From a virus: DNA of 64,000 nt. Shown here piece after piece: positions 5,266-40,129 of this stretch. The DNA is taken from IMG/VR virus record IMGVR_UViG_3300034019_000586, positions 2,723 through 66,722 of that record, one strand, 5' to 3'. The number at the start of each line of letters is the position of its first letter. The stretch's first letter is position 1. Position numbers and translations under genes: made by a program. The notes under the pieces were generated by a model, which was not told the DNA's origin, did not search any database, and saw only the letters and a list, made by a program, of their open reading frames with translations.

Positions 5266-8200
5266 TGCCAAACAAGATATACGATTTCATGAAGTCAAAC
5301 GGCCTCACCACTAAGGATGAGGCTACGTTTTTAAAGGAGTATTCTACTCCTGAAAAGTCGCGTGAACTGCATAGGTTTATGACGGAAAATGAATTAACTA
5401 CAAAGGATGAAAATTCATTTTATTCAGAGTATTTTGCACCAAAGGGGGCATCATCAGAGGTTGGCGCGGCTTCTGGGGTAGATTCAAACGCGCCACAACA
5501 GCCTTCTATTCCGAGTGGAGCAAGTCCTGAATACCTAAAACAACTTAGTGAAAAGAATTTTGTAAAGAGGATTAACAACCCGTCTAAATTTATTAAAAAT
5601 GCCGACGGTAGTAAATCAACTCACAAAATGGCAACAGCCGAAGTTGATGGCAAACAAATTGCCTTTCCTACTATTGTAGAGCAAAACGGCAAACTTGTAG
5701 AATTACCAATAAATGAGGCTATTGATTTCGCCTTAAAAAACAATGAATTTGCTGAATTTGCCAAAGCTGAGGATGCTCAGTGGTACGCAGAAGGAGGATA
5801 TAAAAAAGGAACTCCGCTTGAAAATTTAGAAAAGTCGCCACAACAAGCGGATGGAAACACTTTATTGCCGAGTGGACTAACACTTGACGAGCAAAGACGG
5901 GCGGTATTAAGTCATGCTTCTAAAATTACTCCGCAACAGGATCGTAAATTAAGTTTTGTACAGGATAACGAAAAGATTCCTTTCAGCACAAGGCAAAAGG
6001 CATTAAAAGGAACGCAATTTGAATCAGTTGCGCCACTTTCGGAACAACCTATTGCGGGTGAAAGAAACAAGCAGTTAGAATCTCAGGTTAAACAAAACGA
6101 AAGGCAAAACGAAAAGAGTTCACTTGCGGTATTAGCAGAATCTCACAGAAACAACCTTTCAAAAGATGTTGACTATAAAACAACGCAAGAAAAGTTTAAT
6201 TCAGCTTATGAGAATTGGCAAAACGGACAAGGTTCTCCCGAAGATGTAAAACTTGCGGAATCAGAACTTAACAGTCAGCTTGAATTACTTGATCGTGACT
6301 ATATCGGTAACGAGGCAACTAAACGTGGTGCGCTTGCCTTTATGGAGAAAAAAGACAAGTACGACCAAATTACTTCTAAGGTAAAAGCGGGTGAATCAAT
6401 TTCCGAAACAGAAAAGAAATTTCTTTACGACCTAAGAAAAGACGCACTTTCGGCAAAAGCGGCATCAGAAAGGGTTGCCTTGATGGATATTGAAGATAGT
6501 GTTGATATAGACACATTCAATAAAGAAATGGCAACACTTTCGGCTATGCAGGGAAGTATGACGGCAGATGAGTACAACGCCAAAGTTCAAGAAATTACGC
6601 AAAGGACAGGTGTTAATCAGGATGTCATAAATTCACTTGATTTAGGGTATAAGGAGCTTGCTTCGACGGTTGAGTTATCTAAGGTCACAGAGGCACAAAA
6701 TAGAAACATAGAAACAGAACGCGGGTTAGACAAAATGCGTTCCGAACAAAGAAAAGAGGGTGCGTACATGATACCCGAAGCATTGCGCGGACTTGTAGGC
6801 GCAATGGGTACAATGACTTTGAGCGCAGCTAAACTACCAAAGTCGCTTATGGGCCTTGACGATGAAACAAAATACGATTGGACAGATAAGTTATATGACT
6901 TTGCGGAAAACGAAGTAGATGAAAGTCAGGGAACTTGGGGCGCATTACAAGATGCTCCTGCATATTTGAAATATTCTTATATGCTTGGTCAAGGCGTTGG
7001 TTCGGTTGCGATGTTTGCTGCGGGTGGTGGCGTTTCGGCTGCGGTTGGTATGCCTTCGACGGTTGGTACAATAGGCACGGCTTTTATCATGTCGCAGCCT
7101 GACAACTACACAGAGGGTATAAATAGCGGAATGAGCGCACAAGAGGCAAGAATATACTCTAATGTGGTTAGTTCTGCGGAAGCATTTGCGGAAGGAATTA
7201 TACCTGATTCAAACTACTTCAAAAACCAATTAAAAACAACAATACTTTCAGCATACAAAAAGACGGGCTCGGTAAAAGAAGCGTTAAAAGTTGTTCCAAA
7301 AGTAATTGAAGGAATGGCGGTTAGCGGAAGTAAAGAGGGTGCGGAAGAAGTTGTTCAGACTTTTGCGGGTGACGTAACAAAAAGTTTTCTTGACACCGTT
7401 GCAGGTAGTGAGTATTACAATTCTACTTGGAATACAGAATCGTATAAGGACGCTATTTTGTCGGGCGCACTTACGGGTGGATTTATGAAGATGTTTGGTT
7501 CTTCAAGCCCTAAGAGTGAAGATACGCTTAATGTAATGCGGGATATGATTGATTCAAGGGAATCCATTGTTTCTAACATTGCTAAGTTCAATCCTGAATT
7601 AAGTACGCAAGTTGACGAGGTTTTGTCTAAGGCAGAGGAAGCAAAGGCTGGATTGGAATCTCATTCAAAGTGGAATGATTTAACAACGGCAGCACAGAAC
7701 AAGGCACTTGATTTAGTGTGGCAGATGGAACTTGCGGAGGACGCTAAGAAAAGAGTTGAGCAGTTTGGTATTGTCGATGAAAATAGAAACAAAGAATCCG
7801 AAAGGCTTGCGAAGGAATTGAACGATGTTTTTACTGATGATGCAAACACAAAACGGTACGCAGACACAGTTATAAGACAACTTCAACAGGCCCGTGCTGA
7901 ATTAGGTGTTGAATTTGACCCAATGGAAGATTTACCTGAATCGGTTGTAAAAACATTTGATCGGGTGGATGAAGGGTTGCCTACCGACCCCGTTGCGGTA
8001 AAAGAAGCAAGTGATTGGCTTTACTCAAAGTACAAGCAGTTGTCTGAAATGAAAAATGACGACAACCGTAAATTAACTATTGAGCAAATTGAGGCAATTC
8101 AATTACAATTAGGAGAAGATATTGATAAACTTGAAAATTACAGAAATGAAAACGAGCAACAACAAAGAACAGAAGAAAAAACCCAACCTGAAACAGAGGC

Positions 8201-20474: not shown

Positions 20475-21245
20475 ATGATTGAAGATTATTCAGACGAAAA
20501 AGTAGGTGTATTGCCTGAAAACGTACACCTAAAAGATCATGTGATGGTCGGCCTTGTCAGGTTCGGTCAACGCAGTGCTTCTGTACCCGTAAGAAAAGGT
20601 GACAGAACGATCAGAACAGAGAAAATTAATGTTGCCATTGCTGAGGACTACGGAGCGCAATCCCTTGTTGACGAGGACTTGCTTATCCAAAGACAAATCA
20701 GATCGGGTATTGACTTTAATTCAATCCCTCACAAGGGCGGTCATATCCTTGACTTCGGTTCGGTTTGGTACTACACCCGTAAAGCAAAGCCATTTGAATT
20801 TCATTCGCTCAATGCTTACTTGTCACGGGAGGGCAACACGATTTACAACAATACCTTTGTTCAGCAGACATTCTACAAAGACTGGTTTGCGGCAAATCCT
20901 GTAAGTCAATGGAGAATGCCTTTCAGTCCTGAATCAGTTTCAAATTTTGCCGTAAGCTGGCAACTCATTGACGCTAACGGAGGCAAATGGGAATGTGTCG
21001 CACCACAGCTTCAAAAGCCAAATTGGATTCCGCGACTTACTCATTTTTCGATAGCGAACCCAAAATCGGAATCGGTCAATATCGTTGAGGGCGCAAATCC
21101 GGGTTACGATGAGGCCACTCATTCATTCATTGTTCAGCCGGGTTGCAAGATCAGGCTATTCTTCATTAACTCTCCAATGGGACAAAAAGAGTTTTCTGAT
21201 GAAGTTGAATTTGACTTGGATAGCAATAAAATAAATCTAATCTAA
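20475..21245 (+). CDS. Hypothetical protein
   Basis: 256-aa ORF with no recognised motif. Confidence 0.55.
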   Translation: MIEDYSDEKVGVLPENVHLKDHVMVGLVRFGQRSASVPVRKGDRTIRTEKINVAIAEDYGAQSLVDEDLLIQRQIRSGIDFNSIPHKGGHILDFGSVWYYTRKAKPFEFHSLNAYLSREGNTIYNNTFVQQTFYKDWFAANPVSQWRMPFSPESVSNFAVSWQLIDANGGKWECVAPQLQKPNWIPRLTHFSIANPKSESVNIVEGANPGYDEATHSFIVQPGCKIRLFFINSPMGQKEFSDEVEFDLDSNKINLI

Positions 21246-21736
21246 TCGTTTAAATTATCAGACTTAGGGAGATTGTTGTGGGTTAGTCCTTGCTCCCTAA
21301 GTCTTTTTCTGTATTTTTTTAAGGATTCTGAATTTTTAAGCCTGCTTTCAATTGTCCATTTGGGCTTTTTCCATAAATTGTTTTGATGAACATGATTGAT
21401 GTTTTCTTGTCTTGTACACCACTCTAAATTGTCTTTATGGTTATTGGCCTTATTTGCATCTTTATGATTAACCTCTGGCTTTCTTTCTGTATTTTCAATG
21501 AAGTGCATACAAACAATACGGGAAAGCCTAAAAGAAGTTCCTTTATTGTTTTTTGACAGTTTTACAGCATAGTATCCTTTTTTACTGATTGATGGCTTTA
21601 AGATTGTTTTTGGCTTTTTTATTTTCATTCCGTTTTTACAAAGTACGGTTCGGTCTAAAGCCATTATTCTACCGTGAGAACTTACCATATAAAGCCCCTC
21701 ATACCCAACAACGTCTTTCCAAATTTCTTCTTCCAT
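21242..21736 (-). CDS. NUMOD4-HNH homing endonuclease
   Basis: EEIWKDVVGYEGLYMVSSHGRI (NUMOD4) and EVNHKDANKANNHKDNLEWCT (HNH). Confidence 0.92.
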   Translation of the reverse strand: MEEEIWKDVVGYEGLYMVSSHGRIMALDRTVLCKNGMKIKKPKTILKPSISKKGYYAVKLSKNNKGTSFRLSRIVCMHFIENTERKPEVNHKDANKANNHKDNLEWCTRQENINHVHQNNLWKKPKWTIESRLKNSESLKKYRKRLREQGLTHNNLPKSDNLND

Positions 21737-30517: not shown

Positions 30518-31594
30518 TTACTTTTTAGAATTAGCGTGTTCAATTGTCTTTTGAAGCAATGTTTCAACGTCTGATTTAGCCTTTTTAAATTTAGCTGATT
30601 TAAACTCATATTTTCCGATAAGTGCCTGAATGTCGGAAATAAGCGCGTCGAACTTTTCAGCGTCACCACGAGATAGCAATGCTTCTTTTTCTGCTTCAAG
30701 ACGTGCTGTTTCGGCAATCTTAGCTTCTTCTCTTGCTTTTAATTCGTCTGCAATTCGTTTCCGTTCAGCTTCTAATTCAGCTTGTGCCTCACGAGCAATG
30801 CGTTCTACTTCTTCGCGTTCTCTTTTCGCCTTTTCATCTGCCTTGCGCTGCTCTTCTGCAATACGTTTGCGCTCTGCCTCCGCTTCGGCTTCTTTTGCCC
30901 TTAATTCAGCCTCATGCTTTTCGCGCAATTCTCTTTCCTTTCGTTCCTGTTCGGCACGTTCGGCGGCAAGTTCTCTTTCCCTTTGTTCCGCTTCTGCCTT
31001 CAATCTTTCATTCTCTATACGGATTCTTTCACGTTCCTCTGCCTCAGCCTTTTCTTTAGCAATATGGGCCTCATAAGCCTCTCTTTCAGCCTTTTCCCTC
31101 GCTTCTTTTGCCAACTTCAATCCCTCAACAAGATTCTGAAACGCATCTTCTGTCAATGTTTCTGAATTATAGTTTTCCGGCATTTCCACAATTTCAGAAA
31201 GTACCGCAATTCGATCTGCTTTCAGTTTTGCAAGTCGTTCGCGCTCGATGTTCTCAAAGTGTTTTTCGATTGATTCAAGTTTTGTTTCAATACCTTCTGA
31301 GGCGAATAGTTGCGCGTTCTTCCACCCGTCAATGTACCGTCCTGCCGCAAGGTAAAAAGCCTTTTGTTGCTTGTGAATTTCGGCTGTACCCGTACGAACT
31401 TTAACGTACTTCAACCTGAGTGCCTTTGCTTTTGTGCAGGTTTCTTTATCAACTGGAAGTTGAACAATTTCATTGTATTCGTTTTCAAGTTCAACCATTT
31501 TTTCCAGCATTGGTTTGAACTGTTCTGCAATTTGTGTTGCTTTTGATTCCTCAATTCCGAATTGAGAAGGATCAAGTTTTACGATTTCTGTCAT
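30518..31594 (-). CDS. Long coiled-coil protein
   Basis: 358 aa with an E/K/A/R-rich heptad region; located in the recombination module. Confidence 0.6.
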   Translation of the reverse strand: MTEIVKLDPSQFGIEESKATQIAEQFKPMLEKMVELENEYNEIVQLPVDKETCTKAKALRLKYVKVRTGTAEIHKQQKAFYLAAGRYIDGWKNAQLFASEGIETKLESIEKHFENIERERLAKLKADRIAVLSEIVEMPENYNSETLTEDAFQNLVEGLKLAKEAREKAEREAYEAHIAKEKAEAEERERIRIENERLKAEAEQRERELAAERAEQERKERELREKHEAELRAKEAEAEAERKRIAEEQRKADEKAKREREEVERIAREAQAELEAERKRIADELKAREEAKIAETARLEAEKEALLSRGDAEKFDALISDIQALIGKYEFKSAKFKKAKSDVETLLQKTIEHANSKK

Positions 31595-31623
31595 TTTGTT
31601 TTTCTTATTTGATTTATGTGTTA

Positions 31624-32559
31624 TTACTCCTTTACAAACGATTCACGTTTAGCGTTGATCTGATCGGCATACTTCTGTTTCAAGTCGTCATTAAAGGATT
31701 CAACCCTTTTGTTAAGTGATGCAAGTGATTTAGATTCCTCGATTAATTTTAAGATGCGGGATTCTTCTTCTTCGGCTGTTGACGGAGTTTGATTTACGTT
31801 GTCAGTTGTCTTATTTCGTCTGAAAGCTGATTCAACCGTTGTATCACCGTCTTTTAAGGCCGTTCCGATACCGATCAATGTCGCAATATCGTCTGCATCA
31901 ACAAAGTCAATTGAAGCCTTTCCTATTGCACTCAACACTTCTTCTTCGGTCACGTTGAACGTTCCCATTAATTTGTCCACCACCTGACGGGCTTTTTTCT
32001 TGCGCTTTTCGTCGTCTGAAACATCACCCGTTAAAACGTTCAATGCAGCAGTATAGACGCTATCCACAATCGGACGCGGTATAACGGAAAGTATTGCGTT
32101 TCTTAGCGCAATAGCGTTGGCCGCATTGCCCGTGACAACAATCATATCTTCTTTGTACCGCTTGCCGTACTTGTCAAGTATGGATTTTTTTACCTGAGTC
32201 TTAATCGCAATGTTGGCTTCAAGATCAAAGCAAACCGCCTCGCTTGTAATCTGTGTTGCAGATACATCAACCACTTTTGCCTCAATCCTTAAATTTCCCC
32301 AAGTCTGAGCAAGGATTTTAGCAAGGTGAACCGATGGCCCTGTAATTGATTTACCACCACGAGGAACGGAATAAGTGCAGGTTTGAGCAGTTTGTTGGTC
32401 AATTGTGACAATATCGGTCGCGTTTTTCTTTGCTCGTTGAATATTCCGAGGGAAGGATTTTGCAGTCGCGATCTGGACGTCAATTGCTGCCTTGTCTTGT
32501 TGATAAACAAGTTCTGTTGCTGTTGTGATGATTACTTCATCGTTTGTTTCTTCTGACAT
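31624..32559 (-). CDS. Putative ssDNA-annealing/recombination protein
   Basis: IDVQIATAKSFPR...YSVPRGGKSITGPSVHLA...WGN family; function inferred from proximity to the YqaJ-like nuclease. Confidence 0.5.
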   Translation of the reverse strand: MSEETNDEVIITTATELVYQQDKAAIDVQIATAKSFPRNIQRAKKNATDIVTIDQQTAQTCTYSVPRGGKSITGPSVHLAKILAQTWGNLRIEAKVVDVSATQITSEAVCFDLEANIAIKTQVKKSILDKYGKRYKEDMIVVTGNAANAIALRNAILSVIPRPIVDSVYTAALNVLTGDVSDDEKRKKKARQVVDKLMGTFNVTEEEVLSAIGKASIDFVDADDIATLIGIGTALKDGDTTVESAFRRNKTTDNVNQTPSTAEEEESRILKLIEESKSLASLNKRVESFNDDLKQKYADQINAKRESFVKE

Positions 32560-32613
32560 AATGTTTATTGTTTTGAATTAATTTATGTTTTATTGATTTG
32601 GTTCTCCGTTAGG

Positions 32614-33081
32614 TTATGTGTTTTGTCCTAAGATTTCTTTTTTATAGTCAACAAATTCTACGCCTGTGATCTTTTCTAAAATTGCGTTTTTCTGTAAACG
32701 CAATTCTTCAATTTGTTCATCAATTTTAGCCGCTTCAATTTTATGCTTTTCGTTTTTTTCATCGTAAAGAATGTAGTCTTTTTCCTTATGTTCAGGTAAC
32801 TGTATCTTTTCGCCTTTCGAGTTTTCATAAACAAAACTTCCATCTTTTCTGATGCCGATAAGCTTAATCATTTTTTCTCCGTATGATTTCGGTTTAGATT
32901 CAACCCAAATAGGTTTAAAAACCTCATTCTCTTTTATGAAATCGTCAATCCACTTTTTTGTTGAAGCAAATGATTTTTTAGATTCATTTCTATCCCATTG
33001 TTCAGAATGGCAGTAAAATGTTTCTTTTTTGGTGTCAAATGATATTGACCAACCTCTGTAAACTTGAATTTCTATTTTCAT
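32614..33081 (-). CDS. Hypothetical protein
   Basis: 155-aa ORF. Confidence 0.55.
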   Translation of the reverse strand: MKIEIQVYRGWSISFDTKKETFYCHSEQWDRNESKKSFASTKKWIDDFIKENEVFKPIWVESKPKSYGEKMIKLIGIRKDGSFVYENSKGEKIQLPEHKEKDYILYDEKNEKHKIEAAKIDEQIEELRLQKNAILEKITGVEFVDYKKEILGQNT

Positions 33082-33096
33082 TTTGTTGTAATTAAT

Positions 33097-33348
33097 TTAT
33101 ATTCTACCTTGACTTTTATAGAACTGCCTGAGAGCCATTTTAACGGCTATTCCTTCGGTGCATCCAAAGTCGTTTGAATCTTGTTTAATGCAGTTTCCTA
33201 CATCTTCGGGTATATCGCTTACCCTTACGTCGTATCTTCCTTCGGGAAGTGTTTTTTCTGTCTTTCTCATCGCTTTTCGTTTCAATCTGACTTGATCTAA
33301 ATTTTGTCTGTTTTCTTTGTTTCTCATATCGTCCGCAATTTTACGCAA
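33097..33348 (-). CDS. Small putative DNA-binding protein (RHH-like)
   Basis: YDVRVSDIPEDV...AVKMALRQFY beta-alpha-alpha pattern; the real start is probably downstream of 33348. Confidence 0.4.
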   Translation of the reverse strand: MRKIADDMRNKENRQNLDQVRLKRKAMRKTEKTLPEGRYDVRVSDIPEDVGNCIKQDSNDFGCTEGIAVKMALRQFYKSQGRI

Positions 33349-33389
33349 TTTAACACGATTAATGCAAGTTTATTTCAAAATAAATTTAT

Positions 33390-33824
33390 TCACAAAGTGG
33401 TTTTTGCATGAATTTTCAATTCACCCATCTTGTAATTCCCTGACTTCTCCTTCTGTTTCTTCAAGGTTATCAGCTTTGAATAGTCACCCGAACCAACCGT
33501 TTCGATTAGCCCTCCTGACCTACTGAAATAACCCAAGACAAACATCGGTGAAATGTTTCCCGCAACTTCTAATAAATCAAGTTTCTCCGACAACTGTCCT
33601 GACTTCCATAGACAAAATTTAGAACTGTCAGCAACCCTGAAAATCTTCTTCGTAGTCGGGTACAAATCCCATTTACCGTTAATCCGAAAGTGATAATCAG
33701 TCACCTTCTCAACCCTGAATTTTGATTGATTAAGAGCCATGATTTCATTAGTTGCGCTCATCATTTTATCCGATTTTCTCTCCTTAGAAAGCCTTGTAAA
33801 TTCTTTGTAGTCTTCTGAATCCAT
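33390..33824 (-). CDS. Hypothetical protein
   Basis: 144 aa, containing YHFRINGKWDLYPTTKK. Confidence 0.55.
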   Translation of the reverse strand: MDSEDYKEFTRLSKERKSDKMMSATNEIMALNQSKFRVEKVTDYHFRINGKWDLYPTTKKIFRVADSSKFCLWKSGQLSEKLDLLEVAGNISPMFVLGYFSRSGGLIETVGSGDYSKLITLKKQKEKSGNYKMGELKIHAKTTL

Positions 33825-33904
33825 TGTTATTGTTTTTTCGTTAATTAATCCATATCCGCGAACACTTGTTGAATATGTGCAGTAAAATCATCCATAGCTG
33901 GTAG

Positions 33905-34141
33905 TTAGGTGCAAGGCTCGTACAACGGACAAGCTGCATCCTTACATTTAATCTTTAGCAAACCATTATCAGTTCGGTTGCTTTTCCGAACTCCGCAATA
34001 TTGAAAAACCTTGCTGTTACATTCCCACCGTTGGCGATGCTCACAAGAATTACAAGTAAGCCCAGCACCTAACAATGGTTTTGCGTCAGGCAGGCTGAAC
34101 AGCGTTGGTTGAACATTTGTGGTTAAATCATCTTTATTCAT
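33905..34141 (-). CDS. Cassette 1 ORF, small Cys-rich protein
   Basis: 78 aa with CxxC...C...C. Starts in the attC1 loop; the stop is the TAA of the core at 33905-33907. Confidence 0.65.
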   Translation of the reverse strand: MNKDDLTTNVQPTLFSLPDAKPLLGAGLTCNSCEHRQRWECNSKVFQYCGVRKSNRTDNGLLKIKCKDAACPLYEPCT

Positions 34142-34199
34142 TCTATTGAAATTTAGTGGTTAAAATCCTGCCCGAACGCAAAGCCATCGGACGTTAGCT
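34067..34199 (+). repeat. attC-like site 1
   Basis: ACCTAAC-A-ATGGTTTTGCGTCAGGCAGG ... CCTGCCCGAACGCAAAGCCAT-CGGAC-GTTAGCT. Confidence 0.85.
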
Positions 34200-34403
34200 G
34201 CCATTGTAATGTGACACCACACAAGGGCATCTTTTACCATAATCAGGCATAATAACTTTATCGCATAGATTTACACTTACACCACATAAGCAAGTTTGTT
34301 TTACCTTGCTGTAATCTACCTCCGATTGAGGAGGAATAACGGCAGCTAACAAGCGGTTAGCGTCATTGCCGTTTTCGTGTTTTATTAAATTTTCTGTTTT
34401 CAT
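34194..34403 (-). CDS. Cassette 2 ORF, small Cys-rich protein (69 aa from ATG 34403)
   Basis: MKTENLIKHENGNDANRLLAAV...CLC...C...CPC. Starts in the attC2 loop and stops in the core TAA. Confidence 0.6.
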   Translation of the reverse strand: MKTENLIKHENGNDANRLLAAVIPPQSEVDYSKVKQTCLCGVSVNLCDKVIMPDYGKRCPCVVSHYNGS

Positions 34404-34477
34404 ATCAAATTTATTTTTAAAGTTAAAGTTTTGTGTTCCAAAGTCGGCAACGAACGCCAACCGCCAAAACGTTAGGC
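34344..34477 (+). repeat. attC-like site 2
   Basis: AGCTAAC-AA-GCGGTTAGCGTCATTGCCG ... CGGCAACGAACGCCAACCGC-CAAAAC-GTTAGGC. Confidence 0.85.
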
Positions 34478-34495
34478 GATATGCCAACAGACACC

Positions 34496-34930
34496 CTACA
34501 ACGGTTGAGTGATTTGATTACGAAGTATATCATAAAATACATTTCGTGACAAAGCACCCAAACAAATAAAATCGGGCTTCATTTCATTTAAAGCTAATAT
34601 TTCAGGAATAGCAATAAATAAATCTTCATCAGTAAGTTTTTTAATTAAATCACAATCCATTTCTATAACAGTACCTTTTGTTTTGAAATATCTTTGTTGT
34701 AAGTATTTTGTATATGCTTGTGTAGCATCTGCAATTACACCATACGTTTCGTTTGGGTTTTGCCTTGTAGCCCAACAAACGAAAGCACCTTTAAAATCAT
34801 TTATCATTAAATGAAATTTATCATTCAAATAATTTGCCGAAATGTCAGCGTTTGTCAATTTGTGAACTGACTTGTCTTTAATTTGTTTTGGAGTTAAGTC
34901 AATAACTTCTTTTTGATTTTCTGTACTCAT
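34496..34930 (-). CDS. Cassette 3 ORF, hypothetical protein
   Basis: 144 aa, wholly inside the cassette body, with an AT-rich leader. Confidence 0.65.
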   Translation of the reverse strand: MSTENQKEVIDLTPKQIKDKSVHKLTNADISANYLNDKFHLMINDFKGAFVCWATRQNPNETYGVIADATQAYTKYLQQRYFKTKGTVIEMDCDLIKKLTDEDLFIAIPEILALNEMKPDFICLGALSRNVFYDILRNQITQPL

Positions 34931-34973
34931 TTTATATTTATTTAAAGTTTAAAATTTTAATAAAGGCACAATC

Positions 34974-35105
34974 GCCTAACATCGGTTTTGTGCAAGTGGG
35001 GCTGAATTGCTAAATTCAACAGCGGTAATTCTAATCGGCTTTTGTGCTGAATTGAAACTTTCGTGTTCCAAATCCCCACCTGCACAAAGCCGCAACACGT
35101 TATAG
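34974..35105 (+). repeat. attC-like site 3
   Basis: GCCTAAC-AT-CGGTTTTGTGCAAGTGGGG ... CCCCACCTGCACAAAGCCG-CAACAC-GTTATAG. Confidence 0.85.
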
Positions 35106-35576
35106 GGCATTTAACCGAGCCACCACATCAGCAGACGTATGACCGTCAAACTCAAATAATGCTCTATCCTTTGCAGGTATTTTGAATAAATCCCAATCTT
35201 TCAATTCATAGTGGTTTGATATTTGACCTGTTGGCAATACTGCAACAACGATAAACCAACCACCACCAAAGCAATATTCTCCATCGTGATGCCTAATTGA
35301 TTTGTGAACATTGTATTGTGGTATATCAAACTTTGCCCACTCATTGAATAGTGCAGCATTGTAAGTTTTCCTAAACTCATACAATTCATTAAATGTCTGA
35401 TAACCGTCAGAGTAGTTTCCCCTAACATCAGCAGGTGTATTATCAATACCCTTTTGAACTGATAAAATAATTCCGTTTTGTCCTTGCATTTTTGTGTAAA
35501 ATAAACGCCCTATAACATACGCTATACAAAAGCAGGGGCGAACTGCTAATACAAGCGGTGTGCATCTATTTTTCAT
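35100..35576 (-). CDS. Cassette 4 ORF, conserved phage protein (WDGH-like)
   Basis: SDGYQTFNELYEFR...HKSIRHHDG...GWFIV...LPTGQISNHY...FDGHT. Stops in the core TAA; alternative start at ATG 35489. Confidence 0.7.
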   Translation of the reverse strand: MKNRCTPLVLAVRPCFCIAYVIGRLFYTKMQGQNGIILSVQKGIDNTPADVRGNYSDGYQTFNELYEFRKTYNAALFNEWAKFDIPQYNVHKSIRHHDGEYCFGGGWFIVVAVLPTGQISNHYELKDWDLFKIPAKDRALFEFDGHTSADVVARLNAL

Positions 35577-35639
35577 TTGTGGTAGGCTGAAAGGGAGTGC
35601 ATCTTAACCCCTGCCTTCGTATAGCGTCAGCCGTTAGCC
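35510..35639 (+). repeat. attC-like site 4
   Basis: CTATAAC-AT-ACGCTATACAAAAGCAGGGG ... CCCCTGCCTTCGTATAGCGT-CAGCC-GTTAGCC. Confidence 0.85.
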
Positions 35640-36431
35640 GCAATACGCAGACACCCGACTGACGGCAATTTCAAAATACTTTTCATCTTTTTCTATTCCG
35701 ATAAAGTGGCGACCTGTTTTTTTACAAGCGACACCTGTTGTTCCAGAACCCATGCAATTATCTAAAACAGTTTCGCCTTCGTTTGTATAAGTATTAACTA
35801 AGTAATCAAATAAAGCTATTGGTTTTTGGGTTGGATGAAATTTTCCATCAAATTCAGCAGTCGTAAAATACTGTACACTTCTCGGCAATCTCATGCCATC
35901 CTCTGATTTTCTTATGTGGCTATGGTAGTTCGGTATGTTATTTGAAACTTCGGGGTTATCGTGTTTCTCTTTTACACCACCTCTGTAATATGGTTTCCCT
36001 TGTGTTTTTTGTGGATAATAATTGGGAGTTCCGTTAGCAAATACAAGTACATTTTCGTGTGCTTTCAATGGCTGTTTTTTAGCCAGCAAAAAATTACTTG
36101 CTTTGCTTTTTTCCCAAATCCATTCGTATTTAAACATCTTTGGATTACTCATTACTAAGGCACTTGTAAAAGGCTGCGAAGCCGTTAAAACTATTGCACC
36201 ATTATCTTTTATAACTCTTTCGTAATGTTTCCAAAGTGGTTCAAAAGGTATTACACTATCCCACTTGCAAGCAGTAGTTCCATAAGGCAAATCACACAAA
36301 ATCATATCCACACTTTTATCTTCAATCTTATCCATTTCTACAAGGCAATCACCCTGATAGAATGTACTGCGGCTAACATTGCATTGCTGAACATTGCCAG
36401 CTTCATCGGTAATTTGAACTTTGTATTCCAT
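35634..36431 (-). CDS. Cassette 5 ORF, N6A/N4C DNA methyltransferase (beta class)
   Basis: GDCL, ILCDLPYG (motif IV), HPTQKP and VLDNCMGSGTTG (motif I). Starts in the attC5 loop and stops in the core TAA. Confidence 0.92.
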   Translation of the reverse strand: MEYKVQITDEAGNVQQCNVSRSTFYQGDCLVEMDKIEDKSVDMILCDLPYGTTACKWDSVIPFEPLWKHYERVIKDNGAIVLTASQPFTSALVMSNPKMFKYEWIWEKSKASNFLLAKKQPLKAHENVLVFANGTPNYYPQKTQGKPYYRGGVKEKHDNPEVSNNIPNYHSHIRKSEDGMRLPRSVQYFTTAEFDGKFHPTQKPIALFDYLVNTYTNEGETVLDNCMGSGTTGVACKKTGRHFIGIEKDEKYFEIAVSRVSAYCG

Positions 36432-36504
36432 ATCAACTTTTTATTTTAAATTAAACATTTTTGCTTCTAAATTGGCAACGTCAGCAATACGCAAACCGTT
36501 ATGT
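36371..36504 (+). repeat. attC-like site 5
   Basis: GGCTAAC-AT-TGCATTGCTGAACATTGCCA ... TGGCAACGTCAGCAATACGCA-AACC-GTTATGT. Confidence 0.8.
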
Positions 36505-36509
36505 GCCAT

Positions 36510-36674
36510 TTAATCGACACGCTCCTCAACTATCTTTGTTAATGCCCCACCAACTCTCATCTCATTAAGTTGCTTTTCACTTTCAATCGCTTTCTCCATT
36601 GTGGAATTTACACTCCAAATAACATCTTTTGGGGGTGCTTCACAATCAAGAACAATATAAACGGCACATAACAC
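36510..36674 (-). CDS. Cassette 6 ORF, small hypothetical protein (54 aa, not in ORF track)
   Basis: GTG start overlapping the attC6 core: (M)LCAVYIVLDCEAPPKDVIWSVNSTMEKAIESEKQLNEMRVGGALTKIVEERVD. Spans the cassette body. Confidence 0.45.
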   Translation of the reverse strand: MLCAVYIVLDCEAPPKDVIWSVNSTMEKAIESEKQLNEMRVGGALTKIVEERVD

Positions 36675-36761
36675 GTGCTATAAGCAAGTTTGCCAATAAC
36701 ATTTGTGCTAAATTTGAACATTTCTGCAAGGCAAACCTGCTCATAGCACCATACGTTAGCG
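36666..36761 (+). repeat. attC-like site 6 (short, 96 bp)
   Basis: ACATAAC-AC-GTGCTATAAGCAAGTTTGCC ... GGCAAACCTGCTCATAGCAC-CATAC-GTTAGCG. Confidence 0.85.
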
Positions 36762-36765
36762 GCAA

Positions 36766-37044
36766 TTAAAAAAACCACCGCACCAAATCCATTCCGCTTG
36801 ACTTATAATTTTGTTTTTCCATTAAATCAAATGGTATTTTTTTAACCATTGCATCAGGCAATCTTAAATTGGTGTATTGAGTGTATCTTTCTAATTTAAG
36901 TGTTCTTCCATCGCCTGAACAAAATTGATAACAAGCTCCATTATAGAGAATGTAATCTCCTTTTTTCACTGTGTATTCTTTTCGCCCAATCTTAACTGCC
37001 GCTAACAAGCGGTTAGCGTCATTGCCGTTTTGTGTTTCGTTCAT
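36766..37044 (-). CDS. Cassette 7 ORF, hypothetical protein
   Basis: 92 aa; the N-terminus MNETQNGNDANRLLAAV is encoded by the attC7 half-site. Confidence 0.65.
   Translation of the reverse strand: MNETQNGNDANRLLAAVKIGRKEYTVKKGDYILYNGACYQFCSGDGRTLKLERYTQYTNLRLPDAMVKKIPFDLMEKQNYKSSGMDLVRWFF
37000..37031 (+). repeat. Truncated attC-like site 7 (left arm only)
   Basis: 37001-37031 is identical to 34345-34375 (31 bp); no complementary right arm follows. Confidence 0.8.
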
Positions 37045-37322
37045 ACTCTACTCAATTTATCGTTCAACTCTTTTCTTATTTCATCCGTTCCTTCGATGTT
37101 CTCATCGCTGTCGGGCATAGTCAGTTCAAACACATCAAGGCTGCATTGATACATATCAGTGTATTCATCGTAACCAAACACGGTTAATTCCATGTAGATG
37201 TTAACGCCTTCAAACGTGCTTTCAATAGTGAACGATTCGTTGTCGTTAACGGTGTCAAGGTTTTTGCAGATCAGCGACCAGGAGTAGTCTGTCATTGTTT
37301 CGGTGTTCATACTTCCTCCCAT
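37041..37322 (-). CDS. Hypothetical acidic protein
   Basis: Within ORF-track 37041..37382; the probable start is MGGSM or MNTET. ATGA overlap with the cassette 7 ORF. Confidence 0.5.
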   Translation of the reverse strand: MGGSMNTETMTDYSWSLICKNLDTVNDNESFTIESTFEGVNIYMELTVFGYDEYTDMYQCSLDVFELTMPDSDENIEGTDEIRKELNDKLSRV

Positions 37323-37323
37323 G

Positions 37324-37563
37324 TTATTGTTCTGTTTTAGTTTCGAGTTCTTTGAGTAGTGCGTCGGTATGTGAAATTGCACATTTTACAATATCTTCCA
37401 TTTTCATCATAAAATCTCTGTCTCCCGCCAACAACCCTTGCATCGCCATCGCCGCAAAATATTCGCGTTTTGTAAGGCCGATGTAACTAATATCAGGATA
37501 GCTATCAAGCCTGTATTTGTCATCCTCGTTAATTGGGTAAATTGGTTGGTCTGAATTTTTCAT
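37324..37563 (-). CDS. Conserved small phage protein
   Basis: GLTKREYFAAMAMQGLLA...ALLKEL, a widespread phage motif. Confidence 0.7.
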   Translation of the reverse strand: MKNSDQPIYPINEDDKYRLDSYPDISYIGLTKREYFAAMAMQGLLAGDRDFMMKMEDIVKCAISHTDALLKELETKTEQ

Positions 37564-37581
37564 GTTATTAAGTTTTGATCG

Positions 37582-37881
37582 TTAAACAAAATTCACTTGT
37601 TCTTTTTTCAGATTAGCCAAAACGGTTTCTTCGATGGTTGAGGCCATTCTGCTAATTTCCTGATTTGCTTTCTGCCTTAATTCATCCGTGTCGGCTAAGT
37701 CGTATTCAATTTCCTGTTTGATTTGATTTAGGTCAGCTTCAACCTCATCTTTTGTTTCTCCGTTTACTGATCGCATGAGGATAAAATTCCATTCGGTGTT
37801 ATCAATGCCGGGAAAACAGATCGTTGCCTTTCCCTTGAAAAAATCCGTCTTTTTGTATGCTTTTGCATCAATTCTTATCAT
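37582..37881 (-). CDS. Hypothetical protein
   Basis: 99-aa ORF in the early region. Confidence 0.5.
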   Translation of the reverse strand: MIRIDAKAYKKTDFFKGKATICFPGIDNTEWNFILMRSVNGETKDEVEADLNQIKQEIEYDLADTDELRQKANQEISRMASTIEETVLANLKKEQVNFV

Positions 37882-37918
37882 GTTGGTTCATTTTATATGC
37901 TTTCGCATTGGTTTGAAT

Positions 37919-38137
37919 TTATTTGTTTTTGAATTTGATATAAAAACTACTCTGTTTAGTTGGCTTTTCTTCCGTTATTTCGATGTCCCCCAGCTTAGTC
38001 ATCACTTCCATCTTCCATTGAACAAAGACTGAAAGATTGGCGGCAAAACAGTTTTTTGAGCCTGTTTTAGGATTCGGCTCAACCCTTTGCAGCAGATACC
38101 CCCTGCACTCGTCGAATGTCAATTCAGATACTTTCAT
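37919..38137 (-). CDS. Hypothetical protein
   Basis: 72-aa ORF in the early region. Confidence 0.5.
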   Translation of the reverse strand: MKVSELTFDECRGYLLQRVEPNPKTGSKNCFAANLSVFVQWKMEVMTKLGDIEITEEKPTKQSSFYIKFKNK

Positions 38138-38342
38138 TTGCTTTAATTTTTGACTTAATTAATTTATTCCTGTGCCTTACCATTTTTAAGTAAAGCCGTT
38201 GCAGTTCGTTAATCCTGTGGTGGTTTATTACCGAACCGTTTTTTTTTGATTCAGCGACTTCAATGGAAAGTTCTTTGAACAGTAGCCCGCAAAGAAATTC
38301 AGTATCTTCGGGCATTAGGTAAGTTAAGTGTGGGTTGGTCAT
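38124..38342 (-). CDS. Hypothetical protein
   Basis: 72-aa ORF in the early region. Confidence 0.5.
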   Translation of the reverse strand: MTNPHLTYLMPEDTEFLCGLLFKELSIEVAESKKNGSVINHHRINELQRLYLKMVRHRNKLIKSKIKANESI

Positions 38343-38802
38343 CGTCCTGTTTATTTGTTTGCACCTTCAAACCCCGTGTCGGGTTTCATTCCAATCACGG
38401 GGAGAAGGTTTAATCAAACCAACTTAACACAAAATTACACAGAATTTTTTAGCATTAAAATAAATACAGCAGCACAGATAATTAAGAATATATCTACCTC
38501 TGTGATGCTTATGGGGTTTATTCGTTTGTCTTTCATAGCTTCTAAATTAATTTAGTTCGTCCGTGTCCGTTTCTTCCAAATCAACAATTTCAGGTGATTC
38601 AGGGCAGTCCTCGAAATCTTCATCGTCAGGCCAAAATTTACCCCAGTCATAATCATGTCGGGAATGTTCGCCTGTTATCGTTCGTCGCTCTCCTGTTTGA
38701 TCTTCTGTATCAATAGTTCCGAAGAAGGTTTGATCTCCTGTGAACGCTCCCGAAATTCAGACAACTCGTTCAACGTGCTTGTGTGTGGTCATGTGGTGGG
38801 GG

Positions 38803-39027
38803 TTATTTGTTTATGAATTGTTCAAAGTCAAAATTAGCCGTTAGCTGTTCCATCATGTATCGCCCCAATATTTCAGGGTTAATGCTCAACCAATCTTCAA
38901 AAGTTAGAATGTCTTTTCGTGTTTCATACGTGGCAATAATTTCTTTACCGTAGTCGTGGTCTATTTTTTCTAAAACTTGCTCAACATTCCATTGAAACAA
39001 GTCCTCCTGTGTTATTACTTTGTTCAT
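38803..39027 (-). CDS. Hypothetical early protein
   Basis: 74 aa, tightly tiled with neighbours. Confidence 0.55.
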   Translation of the reverse strand: MNKVITQEDLFQWNVEQVLEKIDHDYGKEIIATYETRKDILTFEDWLSINPEILGRYMMEQLTANFDFEQFINK

Positions 39028-39037
39028 GTGTCGGGGT

Positions 39038-39250
39038 TTATTTGTTTGTAAATTTCAATGCTTTTCTAAAGCCTAATAAAAAATGGTTAGCTTCTGTGTA
39101 GTCCATAACGGGGCTAATTGTTGCAACACCTTTCTGAATAAAAAATCGCGCAACTGTTTTTCGTTTGTCATCCGATTGTTTTTGATGTACTTCTACACCA
39201 AGACCTTCTGCCATGTTTTTAAGTGCTTCGTGTTCTGTTATCGTGTTCAT
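39038..39250 (-). CDS. Hypothetical early protein
   Basis: 70 aa, tightly tiled with neighbours. Confidence 0.55.
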   Translation of the reverse strand: MNTITEHEALKNMAEGLGVEVHQKQSDDKRKTVARFFIQKGVATISPVMDYTEANHFLLGFRKALKFTNK

Positions 39251-39260
39251 GTGTCAAAAT

Positions 39261-39470
39261 TTATTTGTTTAAAATATTGTGCTGCTCTACAATGTCGCTA
39301 CCTTCATTGCAAACGATCAAAACTACTCCTCCTGCATAATCGGGAAAATAAGATTCGTTTGTTCCGTTGTGTCTTTGTATGTAGCTTTGGCAATACTCCA
39401 GCGATTCAGAAAAACCCTTTCTATTGCTGCTTTGGCTGTCGTGAAAAACTACGTCAAATGTTTTTTCCAT
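39261..39470 (-). CDS. Hypothetical early protein
   Basis: 69 aa, tightly tiled with neighbours. Confidence 0.55.
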   Translation of the reverse strand: MEKTFDVVFHDSQSSNRKGFSESLEYCQSYIQRHNGTNESYFPDYAGGVVLIVCNEGSDIVEQHNILNK

Positions 39471-39485
39471 GTTATTAAGATTTAT

Positions 39486-39707
39486 TTATTTGTTTGATTT
39501 AAAAAATGCTTTGATTTTGTCCGTGTAGGTTATGTCTTTGAACGGATTCCCATCCAGATCGAAACCGTATAACTGCATAACGTGGCAAATGTCTGCATCG
39601 GTTCGCTCCGTGTGCTGAACTGCTTGTTTTGCCGCCATGTAATTTATATGGCTGAATATGCTGACCGCTATCCAGGCGGCTGCAATGATGGTTAGAATTG
39701 ATTTCAT
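39486..39707 (-). CDS. Small protein with N-terminal signal/TM segment
   Basis: Hydrophobic N-terminus MKSILTIIAAAWIAVSIFS. Confidence 0.5.
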   Translation of the reverse strand: MKSILTIIAAAWIAVSIFSHINYMAAKQAVQHTERTDADICHVMQLYGFDLDGNPFKDITYTDKIKAFFKSNK

Positions 39708-39730
39708 GTTGTTTGTGTTATTTGTTAGAA

Positions 39731-40129
39731 TTAATTCAGAGCCTTGTGCATATTTACTGAACGTGGCAAGTTGTGTTCTTTGGCCTTCATTTTCATAAAT
39801 TCATCATTGGTCACAACTTCAAATGAGTAGCCAGACAGTGAGATATAAGTGTCGCCATTTCTACCAACAATATTTCTTCCGTTTCCAGCTCTACCAACTC
39901 CGTTATCAGCATGAAAATAGATTGTTGAATTGTTTGTTTCAAAAGAGTATTGCCAACTTCCTTCGCCCGAATCTGCAAGCATCTTCGCTTCTCTAAAAAG
40001 AAGTTTTTTTGCTGCTGCCAAAGTCAAATTTTCAAAAACTCTTCCTATTTCAAAGTAAGATGTTCCGTTGTCGATCTGTTGTGAGGTGCCAGTATGTGAC
40101 TTCTCTACTACGGTGAATGTGTTGTTCAT
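39731..40129 (-). CDS. Hypothetical early protein
   Basis: 132-aa ORF. Confidence 0.55.
   Translation of the reverse strand: MNNTFTVVEKSHTGTSQQIDNGTSYFEIGRVFENLTLAAAKKLLFREAKMLADSGEGSWQYSFETNNSTIYFHADNGVGRAGNGRNIVGRNGDTYISLSGYSFEVVTNDEFMKMKAKEHNLPRSVNMHKALN

Follow-up and report, generated by a model that had tools for sequence, protein, structure and literature searches.

What kind of element occupies positions 33904-37044 of the window (the whole 64-kb stretch of DNA that was analysed), which derives from a lake-water phage of Bacteroidota? The region holds seven small gene cassettes, separated by six TAAC-hairpin-GTTA sites and one truncated site, and is an integron-like array. A first-pass annotation had noted six palindromes here; re-read from TAAC to GTTA they lie no more than 3 nt from the places it gave, and the half-site that it put at 37000 is present, with its TAAC at 37003. 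Sites of the attC type are imperfect palindromes of 57-141 nt with an inverse core (...AAC) and a core (GTT...), and the six window sites measure 90-128 nt with TAAC...GTTA cores. When both strands of the window were scanned for TAAC...GTTA with arms whose duplex reaches -14 kcal/mol or lower, only the six array sites were recovered, one of them under two entries, since a further TAAC stands at 34337. R1, a covariance model built from 49 hairpins of 25 sources, recognised the six sites at 59-124 bits (E 6e-12 to 3e-27) and found nothing else in the window below E = 0.9. Searched against Rfam 15, the sites yielded no more than a chance match to a microRNA (E 1.6).

On the minus strand, which is the gene strand, each unit reads C-G-(4-5 nt)-arm-loop-arm-T-GTTA-gene-TAA, and TAA|C (plus strand G|TTA) is the point at which one unit meets the next, head to tail. 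The two ends of every unit had been said to pair with one another, and all the quoted end pairs are found in the window: cassette ends are mutually complementary in seven of seven units, each pair consisting of GTTA plus 5-6 nt and 5-6 nt plus TAAC. The chance of five additional matched bases is about 1 in 1000 per unit, and four of the seven pairs stay 87-93% complementary out to 15 nt.

On its attI-proximal side the array has a bare GTTA core (33904..33907, plus strand; crossover G|TTA) with no hairpin arm beside it, and all cassettes and hairpins lie on the minus strand. Cassette 1 (33905..34193, 289 nt) carries a gene (33905-34141) for a 78-aa Cys-rich protein with no family match, and the ATG of this gene falls within the loop of its own hairpin (34070..34196, 127 nt; R1 108.4 bits), the minus strand of which folds better. 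In cassette 2 (34194..34471, 278 nt; gene 34194-34403, 69 aa) the arm of hairpin 2 (34347..34474, 128 nt; 124.2 bits) supplies the codons for the protein N-terminus, ...NGNDANRLLAAV. Cassette 3 (34472..35099, 628 nt; hairpin 34977..35102, 126 nt, 122.5 bits) encodes a 144-aa protein (34496-34930) with a weak, sub-threshold match to Pfam Tad5 (22.4 bits against a cut-off of 27). Cassette 4 (35100..35633, 534 nt; hairpin 35513..35636, 124 nt, 81.8 bits) bears the gene for a 130-aa WDGH-domain protein (35100-35492; PF25311, 1.3e-32), and cassette 5 (35634..36498, 865 nt; hairpin 36374..36501, 128 nt, 100.9 bits) that for a 265-aa N6/N4 DNA methyltransferase (35634-36431; PF01555, 2.1e-30), whose ATG is also within the hairpin loop. 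Cassette 6 (36499..36755, 257 nt) contains a possible 54-aa ORF of uncertain coding status (36510-36674) that would start from a GTG at the core; its hairpin (36669..36758, 90 nt; 59.2 bits) belongs to a short class and has a 20-bp mismatch-free stem on the minus strand. The distal cassette 7 (36756..37044; gene 36766-37044, 92 aa) has a hairpin that ends within the loop, and its ATG overlaps the stop of an upstream 113-aa gene as ATGA (37041-37044). This truncated attC (37003..37044) still has its TAAC core, a single arm and some of the loop, and the arm is 95% identical to that of hairpin 2 over 39 nt.

The stem of these hairpins is conserved as structure, not as sequence. Across the 49 hairpins 90.6% of stem cells pair, as against 65.0% in shuffles, and pairing drops to 36-47% when the partners are slid. 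Both sides have changed in 15 of the 20 stem pairs, with 243 such cells against 82.7 in shuffles and a covariation score of 0.584 against 0.156; not one of 500 shuffles reached the observed pairing or the observed number of two-sided changes. The TAACG/TGTTA pairs are invariant in all 49 aligned members of the family. G.T pairs number 98 and A.C pairs 15 among the 980 cells, or 49 and 15 when the invariant TAACG/TGTTA pair is left out, and it is mainly from the G.T pairs that the strand asymmetry arises, the minus strand folding better by 1.9 to 6.4 kcal/mol at six of six window sites. In integron sites the bottom strand is marked by an unpaired central spacer and by extrahelical bases, two or three in number. 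Here the canonical pair of extrahelical bases is absent from the hairpins, and the folding strand carries instead a one-sided bulge of 4-5 nt after TAAC together with the G.T pairs; a single bulged T or C is seen at three of the six window sites and not at the other three.

Comparison with other viral contigs bears out the proposal that the cassettes are discrete units joined at G|TT. Cassette 2 recurs at 99.6% identity in contig L021, where the common stretch of 284 nt is bounded by TAAC on each side, the next hairpins differ and the DNA on both sides is unrelated; it is also present in L037 and L235 at 92% identity. The WDGH cassette is found in L132 at 96.1% over 540 nt, exactly window 35637-35099, from core to core, and the matches of L133, L134 and L135 to the window end at 35099/35097. 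The flanks of both recurring cassettes change exactly at TAA|C, and L033 equals L022 plus one cassette, its own hairpin first, inserted at TAA|C. In these comparisons (L021, L033/L022, L132) the mobile unit is a hairpin with the gene downstream of it. Contigs from other lake-water samples break at cores as well, at 36668/36758 (X8), 35509/35638 (X4, X9) and 34474 (X9); no excision product or circular junction appeared among the lake-water sequences compared, which are contigs and not reads. Two close relatives with flanks about 90% alike differ from the window in what they hold at this locus, L303 having one other cassette and L305 two, each with its own end repeats, and their homology with the window resumes exactly at 33907/8. 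The first-pass annotation had held that a fixed gene order among related phages would speak against it; their cassette content in fact differs, with the boundary at the core. In 42 other viral contigs a hairpin was detected at either end of 84 units; the ends of 60 of these form a perfect inverted repeat of at least 9 nt and those of the other 24 do not. In bacterial arrays unit ends are complementary in 13 of 18 cases.

These comparisons bear on the alternative that the array is a fossil: site-specific recombination would once have put the cassettes together, whether in a bacterium or in an ancestral phage, but they would now be fixed, and relatives would differ through homologous recombination between conserved hairpins and loops. 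We consider this improbable. It would suit the loss of one arm from the distal cassette and the missing recombinase in the record, as well as the hybrid hairpins in L008 and L039 and the distal junction of three relatives, where homology stops at 37027/8, within a loop-derived segment and not at the core. Given these hybrid hairpins and this junction, ordinary recombination also reshapes phage arrays. However, the proximal boundary falls exactly at the core in three relatives, and the near-identical cassettes in unrelated contexts, broken at TAAC on both sides, indicate recent precise transfer. Homologous exchange between different hairpins would moreover erode the unit-specific end repeats that 60 of the 84 units have kept.

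Which enzyme might act on these sites? A covariance-model search of the kind that had been proposed returned R1 matches in Bacteroidota, on whose chromosomes hairpins of this family stand in arrays next to an Xer/IntI-like tyrosine recombinase. An R1 match lies within 1.5 kb in 18 of 29 loci holding a recombinase homologue (44-65% identity), beyond the 3' end of the recombinase gene in 17 of these 18, and arrays stand beside the recombinase in all 11 loci examined at length. Similar sites do therefore occur next to an integrase-type gene, a point on which the first-pass annotation could have failed. The 65 R1 matches in the 11 longer loci are all on the strand opposite to the recombinase gene, and as many as 21 hairpins lie beside it within 15 kb, in L295. 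L072, the one bacterial locus read in detail, starts with a 377-aa recombinase, after which come two direct repeats and then CTAG|TTATAGCC, an attI-like site 100 nt past the recombinase stop; two genes and GGCTATAAC-hairpin-GTTA follow. The window counterpart is the bare GTTA at 33904, with no enzyme gene.

The linked recombinase P0001 scored 212.5 bits on TIGR02249, in two stretches and against a cut-off of 265. Aligned with IntI4 (2a3v), its residues 107-282 and 299-375 correspond to 8-183 and 242-318, and the IntI-specific segment (I2 helix region) is absent, with 16 residues in place of the 58 in IntI4. Its best matches were NF040815 (224 bits) and, in one block, PDB 4a8e and 5hxy, and it has an additional N-terminal region of approximately 100 residues. 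Since the linked enzyme is Xer-like and without the IntI-specific segment, the earlier designation 'integron-type' denotes a manner of working rather than strict membership.

The window had been described as free of tyrosine recombinases, and none (PF00589) was found in the whole 66,722-bp phage record either, by a search that was positive in 14 of 14 control genomes. A CALIN, as defined in the IntegronFinder papers, is a cluster of two or more attC sites that has no integron integrase in its vicinity, and here six full sites occur in a record with no PF00589 match. Only 2 of 34 other array-bearing viral records hold a recombinase, and the phage array L045 adjoins one of 271 aa and Xer type. 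Given the lack of such a gene in the whole record, service in trans is the natural inference, and the phage array is probably serviced in this way. We conclude that the region is very probably an orphan integron-like cassette array. Each hairpin would serve as an attC-type site whose folding ('bottom') strand is the minus strand, and a tyrosine recombinase may cut within the 5' core of the folded strand, at AA|C. Circular cassettes would then enter at the bare core at 33904 and be excised between two hairpins, by an Xer/IntI-like enzyme that might come from the host or a co-infecting phage.

With the folding strand taken as the bottom strand, phage units comprise 54 bottom, no top and 31 unclassified genes, so that every classifiable phage cassette (54/54) has its gene on the folding strand. 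The bacterial arrays next to the recombinase show the opposite, nine cassette genes being top, one bottom and eight unclassified. Cassette genes of integrons lie on the top strand, followed by attC, and for the most part lack expression signals of their own. Top-strand genes with a downstream attC are accordingly found in the bacterial arrays and not in the phage cassettes, in which the attC, because the gene is on the folding strand, lies upstream of the gene. In long phage hairpins the loop provides an A-rich leader, the ATG and the first ~20 codons, and the longest ATG-started ORF begins within the hairpin in 22 of 33 long hairpins.

Such starts within hairpins, together with a better-folding phage strand that is mRNA-sense and has G.U-compatible pairs, would also fit RNA elements, that is, processing sites of early transcripts, terminators or translation controls, with genes shuffled between intergenic repeats. 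Gene shuffling by recombination between the promoter-stem-loop repeats of T4-like phages has been proposed. We regard this reading of the array as very unlikely, given that the bacterial structure is antisense to the recombinase gene (65/65) and to most cassette genes (9 top against 1 bottom); with its folding strand mostly non-coding, the structure is kept whatever the direction of transcription. RNA elements would have no role for unit-specific complementary ends or a fixed TAA|C boundary, and the site family is tied to a tyrosine recombinase (18/29 loci) and to an attI-like site (one locus). The hairpins could have a secondary RNA role in phages. A last alternative, scarcely credible, is that each hairpin is a miniature transposable element, a palindromic one of MITE or IS200 type, which has landed at a TAAC target between genes. 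Terminal inverted arms flanked by TAAC/GTTA, hairpin-only, core-bounded similarity between the window and MAG contigs and also lake contigs, and a census (PMC11602168) that links Flavobacterium genomes and phages by common 'MITEs' would agree with it. A MITE, however, is non-coding, self-moving and target-duplicating, whereas the unit common to genomes is here a hairpin with a gene, the sequence outside each hairpin pairs with the opposite end of the adjacent gene, unlike a target duplication, and the linked enzyme is a tyrosine recombinase and not a transposase.

As an orphan integron-like array, the locus resembles classical integrons, especially sedentary chromosomal ones with homogeneous attC, in its imperfect palindromes with AAC...GTT cores and G|TT crossover, in cassette ends that pair together when the flanks of one hairpin do not, in head-to-tail arrays that in bacteria start from a bare core adjoining the gene of a tyrosine recombinase, in strand-specific folding and in very diverse, mostly unknown small cargo. 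It differs from them in a linked recombinase without the IntI-specific segment, in hairpins where a one-sided bulge of 4-5 nt and, at TAACG/TGTTA, an invariant G.T take the place of two extrahelical bases, in a bacterial recombinase gene that has the same direction as the array top strand, and in phage genes that are on the folding strand. Recombinase and cassette genes running in the same direction in the bacterial arrays recall the Treponema denticola integron, with its 'inverted' integrase orientation, although that has a true IntI. In sequence the linked recombinase comes closest to XerA and XerC-XerD, which act at dif; however, Xer enzymes use a single double-stranded site, at which they resolve dimers of the chromosome, whereas the gene here sits beside multi-hairpin arrays and its product has the added N-terminal region.

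Together these data lead us to suggest, tentatively, a second kind of integron in Bacteroidota and their phages, in which an Xer-like recombinase without the I2 segment would recombine folded single-stranded hairpins. The phages would have their own pool of inverted cassettes, with the site doubling as 5' leader, start codon and N-terminal peptide, and a borrowed enzyme of the host or a co-infecting phage might swap counter-defence genes such as methyltransferases during infection. If this is so, the segment held to permit single-strand recombination would not be required, or the solution would be independent or ancestral, and Bacteroidota and their viruses would have in common an integron-like gene-exchange system run by an enzyme without the segment thought to define integron integrases.

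Phage attC clusters have already been published; we did not find this hairpin family in the literature. Qi et al. 2023 (PMC9892861) describe CALINs in virulent phage genomes, attC arrays without integrase and with 2-3 sites under standard attC models, whose cargo includes DNA methyltransferases and of which one example is the flavobacterium phage Polaribacter phage P12002L. Integrase-less attC-type arrays and methyltransferase cargo are shared with our locus, which differs in its seven cassettes, in a dedicated site family across many uncultivated phages and in uniformly inverted genes. P12002L gave no significant match to the family model (best E 0.058), and hairpin 2 had no blastn match in 50,697 GenBank phage records. 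Among homologues of the cargo in viral contigs, 77 of 79 WDGH loci and 63 of 80 methyltransferases have no such hairpin within 1.5 kb. The 3' arm of hairpin 2 (28 nt) has exact matches in 42 IMG/VR contigs.

Within 33904-37044 there are six imperfect palindromes, 90-128 nt long and of the form TAAC...GTTA, at 34070-34196, 34347-34474, 34977-35102, 35513-35636, 36374-36501 and 36669-36758 (hairpins 1 to 6), together with a seventh that retains one arm only. When both strands of the 64 kb were scanned for TAAC...GTTA with pairing arms, these six sites alone were recovered. The first-pass annotation had claimed that the two ends of every intervening unit are complementary, and this proved exact: in 7/7 cases the sequence following a GTTA is complementary to that preceding the next TAAC, over 15 nt in four of them, and the two outer flanks of any one hairpin are not complementary. 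Absence of a tyrosine recombinase, also claimed, holds for the whole record, which is 66,722 bases long (64,000 of them in the window) with a CheckV completeness of 100% and no end repeats. Only 2/34 other array-bearing viral records have a tyrosine recombinase; the phage array L045, which shares its contig with locus L005, adjoins a 271-aa Xer-type recombinase. The enzyme acting on the window's array would come from the host or from a co-infecting phage. Together these data confirm the observation of a phage array with seven cassettes and no integrase, and support its integron-type interpretation; we consider it very probable that the locus is an orphan integron-like cassette array. As an attC cluster from which the integrase is absent, it is what has been defined as a CALIN.

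The complementary ends are compatible with two mobile units, a hairpin with the gene that follows it or a gene with the hairpin that follows it, and contig comparisons decide for the former. Contig L033 equals contig L022 plus one extra cassette, inserted at TAA|C with its own hairpin first; the hairpin adjoining the downstream cassette is kept and the new hairpin adjoins the upstream cassette. Likewise, the 278-nt unit at 34194-34471 recurs with 99.6% identity in contig L021, from the TAAC before the hairpin to the TAAC after the gene, with unrelated flanks and a different hairpin after the shared cassette. These two comparisons reject the unit of gene plus downstream hairpin, which read along the gene strand would have its crossover at the 3' GTTA. 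A further contig, L132, contains the WDGH cassette over exactly 35637-35099, and in three others the match to this cassette stops at 35099/35097. The comparisons bear out the crossover at G|TTA on the plus strand that had been proposed at first pass; the bottom strand of integron terminology corresponds here to the minus strand. A blastn search of the array against 97 loci of 542,552 bases (96 MAG or bacterial loci and the phage record L102) found hairpins and distant methyltransferase similarity in common, and no shared cassette bodies.

Close relatives of the phage differ in what lies between the array boundaries. The window, the IMG/VR contig L303 and the metagenome contig L305 have both flanks in common at ~90% (another relative, L001, stops short of the array), and this flank homology picks up at 33907/8, which is the last TAAC, and ceases at 37027/8. 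Between these positions the window holds seven cassettes, L303 one of ~250 nt and L305 two with one full hairpin, and each L303 or L305 cassette has complementary ends of its own. Such differing content among related phages favours the cassette locus that the first-pass annotation had described. Four sequencing runs were also compared, all as contigs whose uncovered parts are uninformative, and no excision product was seen; contigs of other lake samples stop at cores (36668/36758, 35509/35638 and 34474). In run X4 one contig (side 66) joins 33908 to 37027. This joint fits a relative with other cassettes in between and does not amount to an empty site. Logan contigs skip hairpin loops at 34094-34161 in three lake-water runs and at 35532-35614 in two, which probably reflects how palindromes are assembled or aligned rather than biological deletion.

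The distal junction lies in a loop and not at a core, and the distal cassette nonetheless varies among relatives. The end of homology among the three (window 37027-37044; L303 85-130; L305 1088-1130) falls within ATGAAYGAAMCACA, a segment derived from a loop and overlapping the upstream gene's stop, and beyond it each has its own truncated hairpin and its own distal cassette. Our guess is that recombination within the conserved loop segment accounts for the distal cassette differences. At the other end, a mini-ORF of 16 codons, MDDFTAHIQQVFADMD (33843-33893, minus strand), starts 11 nt past the array's last TAAC and is conserved in L303 and L305. Across 16 phage array ends, three of which are undetected short or truncated hairpins, no shared attI-like sequence was found beyond TAAC followed by T/A in most.

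The hairpins belong to a family with a conserved structure. Exact copies of a 28-nt arm of hairpin 2 were found in 42 further IMG/VR contigs, which range from 4 to 191 kb; the sequence there is wholly different immediately outside TAAC and GTTA, and a site scan of these contigs gave 124 sites with 103 distinct sequences. In an alignment of 49 hairpins drawn from these sites (110-135 nt, TAACG start, the commonest type limited to six), TAACG and TGTT are invariant and both-sided changes occur in 15/20 stem pairs. Paired cells amount to 90.6%, as against 65.0% for shuffled alignments (0/500 shuffles reach 90.6%) and 36-47% with slid partners. R1, the covariance model built from the 49 hairpins, scores the six window sites at 59-124 bits, with no further match below E 0.9 in the 64 kb. 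An Rfam search of 33000-38000 in E-value mode gave MIR168 at E 1.6 only, blastn of hairpin 2 against GenBank phages gave no match, and megablast of 31000-40000 against the same phages gave only 197-240-nt pieces of methyltransferase gene in 23 Flavobacterium phage records. A hybrid hairpin, identical in L008 (2020-2174) and L039, combines the 5' arm of one type with a loop and 3' arm taken from the commonest type; its arms no longer pair, which is evidence of crossing-over inside loops.

Folding favours one strand. The minus strand is the better folder at 6/6 window sites, and family-wide the folding strand has 98 G.T pairs against 15 A.C pairs, which indicates a single folding strand that in the phage is the gene strand. 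Among units on viral contigs the gene lies on the folding strand in 54, on the opposite strand in none and ambiguously in 31. In arrays adjoining the bacterial recombinase the gene is on the top strand in 9 units, on the bottom strand in 1 and ambiguous in 8, and small Flavobacterium MAG contigs resemble the phage type (40 bottom and 2 top, both top units being in L072). Since the strand-specific structure persists in sense as well as antisense orientation relative to the genes, it serves primarily in DNA; it may have an additional role in phage RNA. Among the public runs listed as containing the window stretch, which are lake-water metagenomes, there was no RNA run. In phage units the longest ATG-started ORF begins within the hairpin in 22/33 cases for long hairpins and 3/21 for short ones. 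The N-terminus ...NGNDANRLL is thus common to otherwise unrelated small phage proteins because the recombination site encodes it, a point of use in annotation.

Three short MAG contigs, with the labels Flavobacterium, Bacteroidia and Chitinophagales, contain a 25-nt piece of hairpin 2, and in the respective MAGs there are 88, 18 and 11 R1 sites. The 88 matches of the Flavobacterium MAG (G035) are mostly on small contigs within 1.3-12 kb with phage-type gene orientation, which could represent pieces of a chromosomal array or else phage DNA that was binned with the MAG. On L072, a Bacteroidia MAG contig, the gene for a 377-aa tyrosine recombinase is followed after its stop by an attI-like region (5550-5660) with two direct repeats, TTATGGCGCCTATA, and then CTAG|TTATAGCC, the start of the first cassette; two genes, GGCTATAAC-hairpin-GTTA and further sites come after it. 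L072 is a complete integron-like platform. In addition, a chromosomal contig of the Flavobacterium MAG, with carB adjacent, carries a stump of a recombinase gene of the 377-aa type, then a gene, then a hairpin.

Matches to the L072 recombinase at E <=1e-60 were found in 101/401 sampled Bacteroidota genomes, and homologues at E <=1e-100 were listed in 29/401, apart from genome G036 itself. The first-pass reading called for similar sites beside an integrase gene, and an R1 site does lie within the 1.5-kb flanks of an integrase-type gene at 18 of the 29 best loci (44-65% identity), in 17 of the 18 past the 3' end of the recombinase gene. Twelve longer stretches were fetched and 11 searched, L299 (2,274 nt, at a contig end) being omitted. 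The reach of this one hairpin family is such that arrays stand beside the recombinase gene in 11/11 of these longer Bacteroidota loci, with 65 sites in total, a maximum of 21 per 15 kb, and 65/65 on the strand opposite the recombinase gene.

The best family of the L072 recombinase is NF040815 (XerA / integron integrase), at 224 bits; against TIGR02249 (integron integrase) it scores 212.5 bits in two stretches, the cut-off being 265. Its alignment with Vibrio IntI4 (2a3v) likewise falls into two stretches, 107-282/8-183 and 299-375/242-318, with 16 residues in place of 58 in IntI4; the enzyme aligns with XerA and with a XerC-like protein in a single block. This indicates that the enzyme is without the IntI-defining segment, which fits hairpins that appear to lack the usual extrahelical bases and have a one-sided bulge and G.T pairs as their marks instead. 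According to PMC7790495, integron integrases acquired single-strand recombination through the I2 helix as an innovation, and an I2-less enzyme linked to attC-like hairpins allows a direct test of that idea. The system functions as integrons do, but the phage locus differs from the classical family on two counts: it has no IntI-specific segment, and its genes do not lie on the top strand.

Clusters of attC sites in phages were already published in 2023 (PMC9892861); the Polaribacter phage P12002L, taken from that paper, is without the hairpin family of the window, as R1 gave nothing significant there (best E 0.058). Integrons have been regarded as essentially absent from Bacteroidota, and IntegronFinder 2.0 (PMC9024848) is reported to have found almost nothing there, namely In0 elements and a single complete integron, that of Salinibacter. 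In a census of MITEs common to prokaryote and viral genomes (PMC11602168), 66 unknown viral sequences are attributed to Flavobacterium phages on the basis of shared 'MITEs', and hairpins of the TAAC-GTTA family might have been scored there as MITEs. We found no account in the literature of the hairpin family or of an I2-less Bacteroidota integron recombinase; the supplementary CALIN and MITE tables of these three papers could list such sites.

One cassette product is an N6/N4 DNA methyltransferase, another has a WDGH domain, a third (144 aa) has a Tad5 match below threshold, and four more are small proteins without a Pfam family match, one of which (92 aa) weakly matches a PHROG of unknown function. 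We treat an anti-defence role of this cargo as a lead only. A co-oriented hairpin is present at 2/79 WDGH and 17/80 methyltransferase homologue loci, compared with 1/79 and 3/80 in reversed-sequence controls; with so few such loci, both genes must be far more widespread than the cassettes. A cassette currency common to phages of 34 to 191 kb, with methyltransferase and possible anti-defence cargo, would provide a mechanism by which phage genomes come by their mosaic 'accessory' regions and also a route of virus-host gene flow. In this phage, minus-strand genes extend from ~21 kb to 43 kb and include those for a DnaB-type helicase, NinG and an HNH endonuclease. In the same early region a 164-aa ORF (21242-21736, minus strand) carries NUMOD4 and HNH_3 domains and is homing-endonuclease-like.
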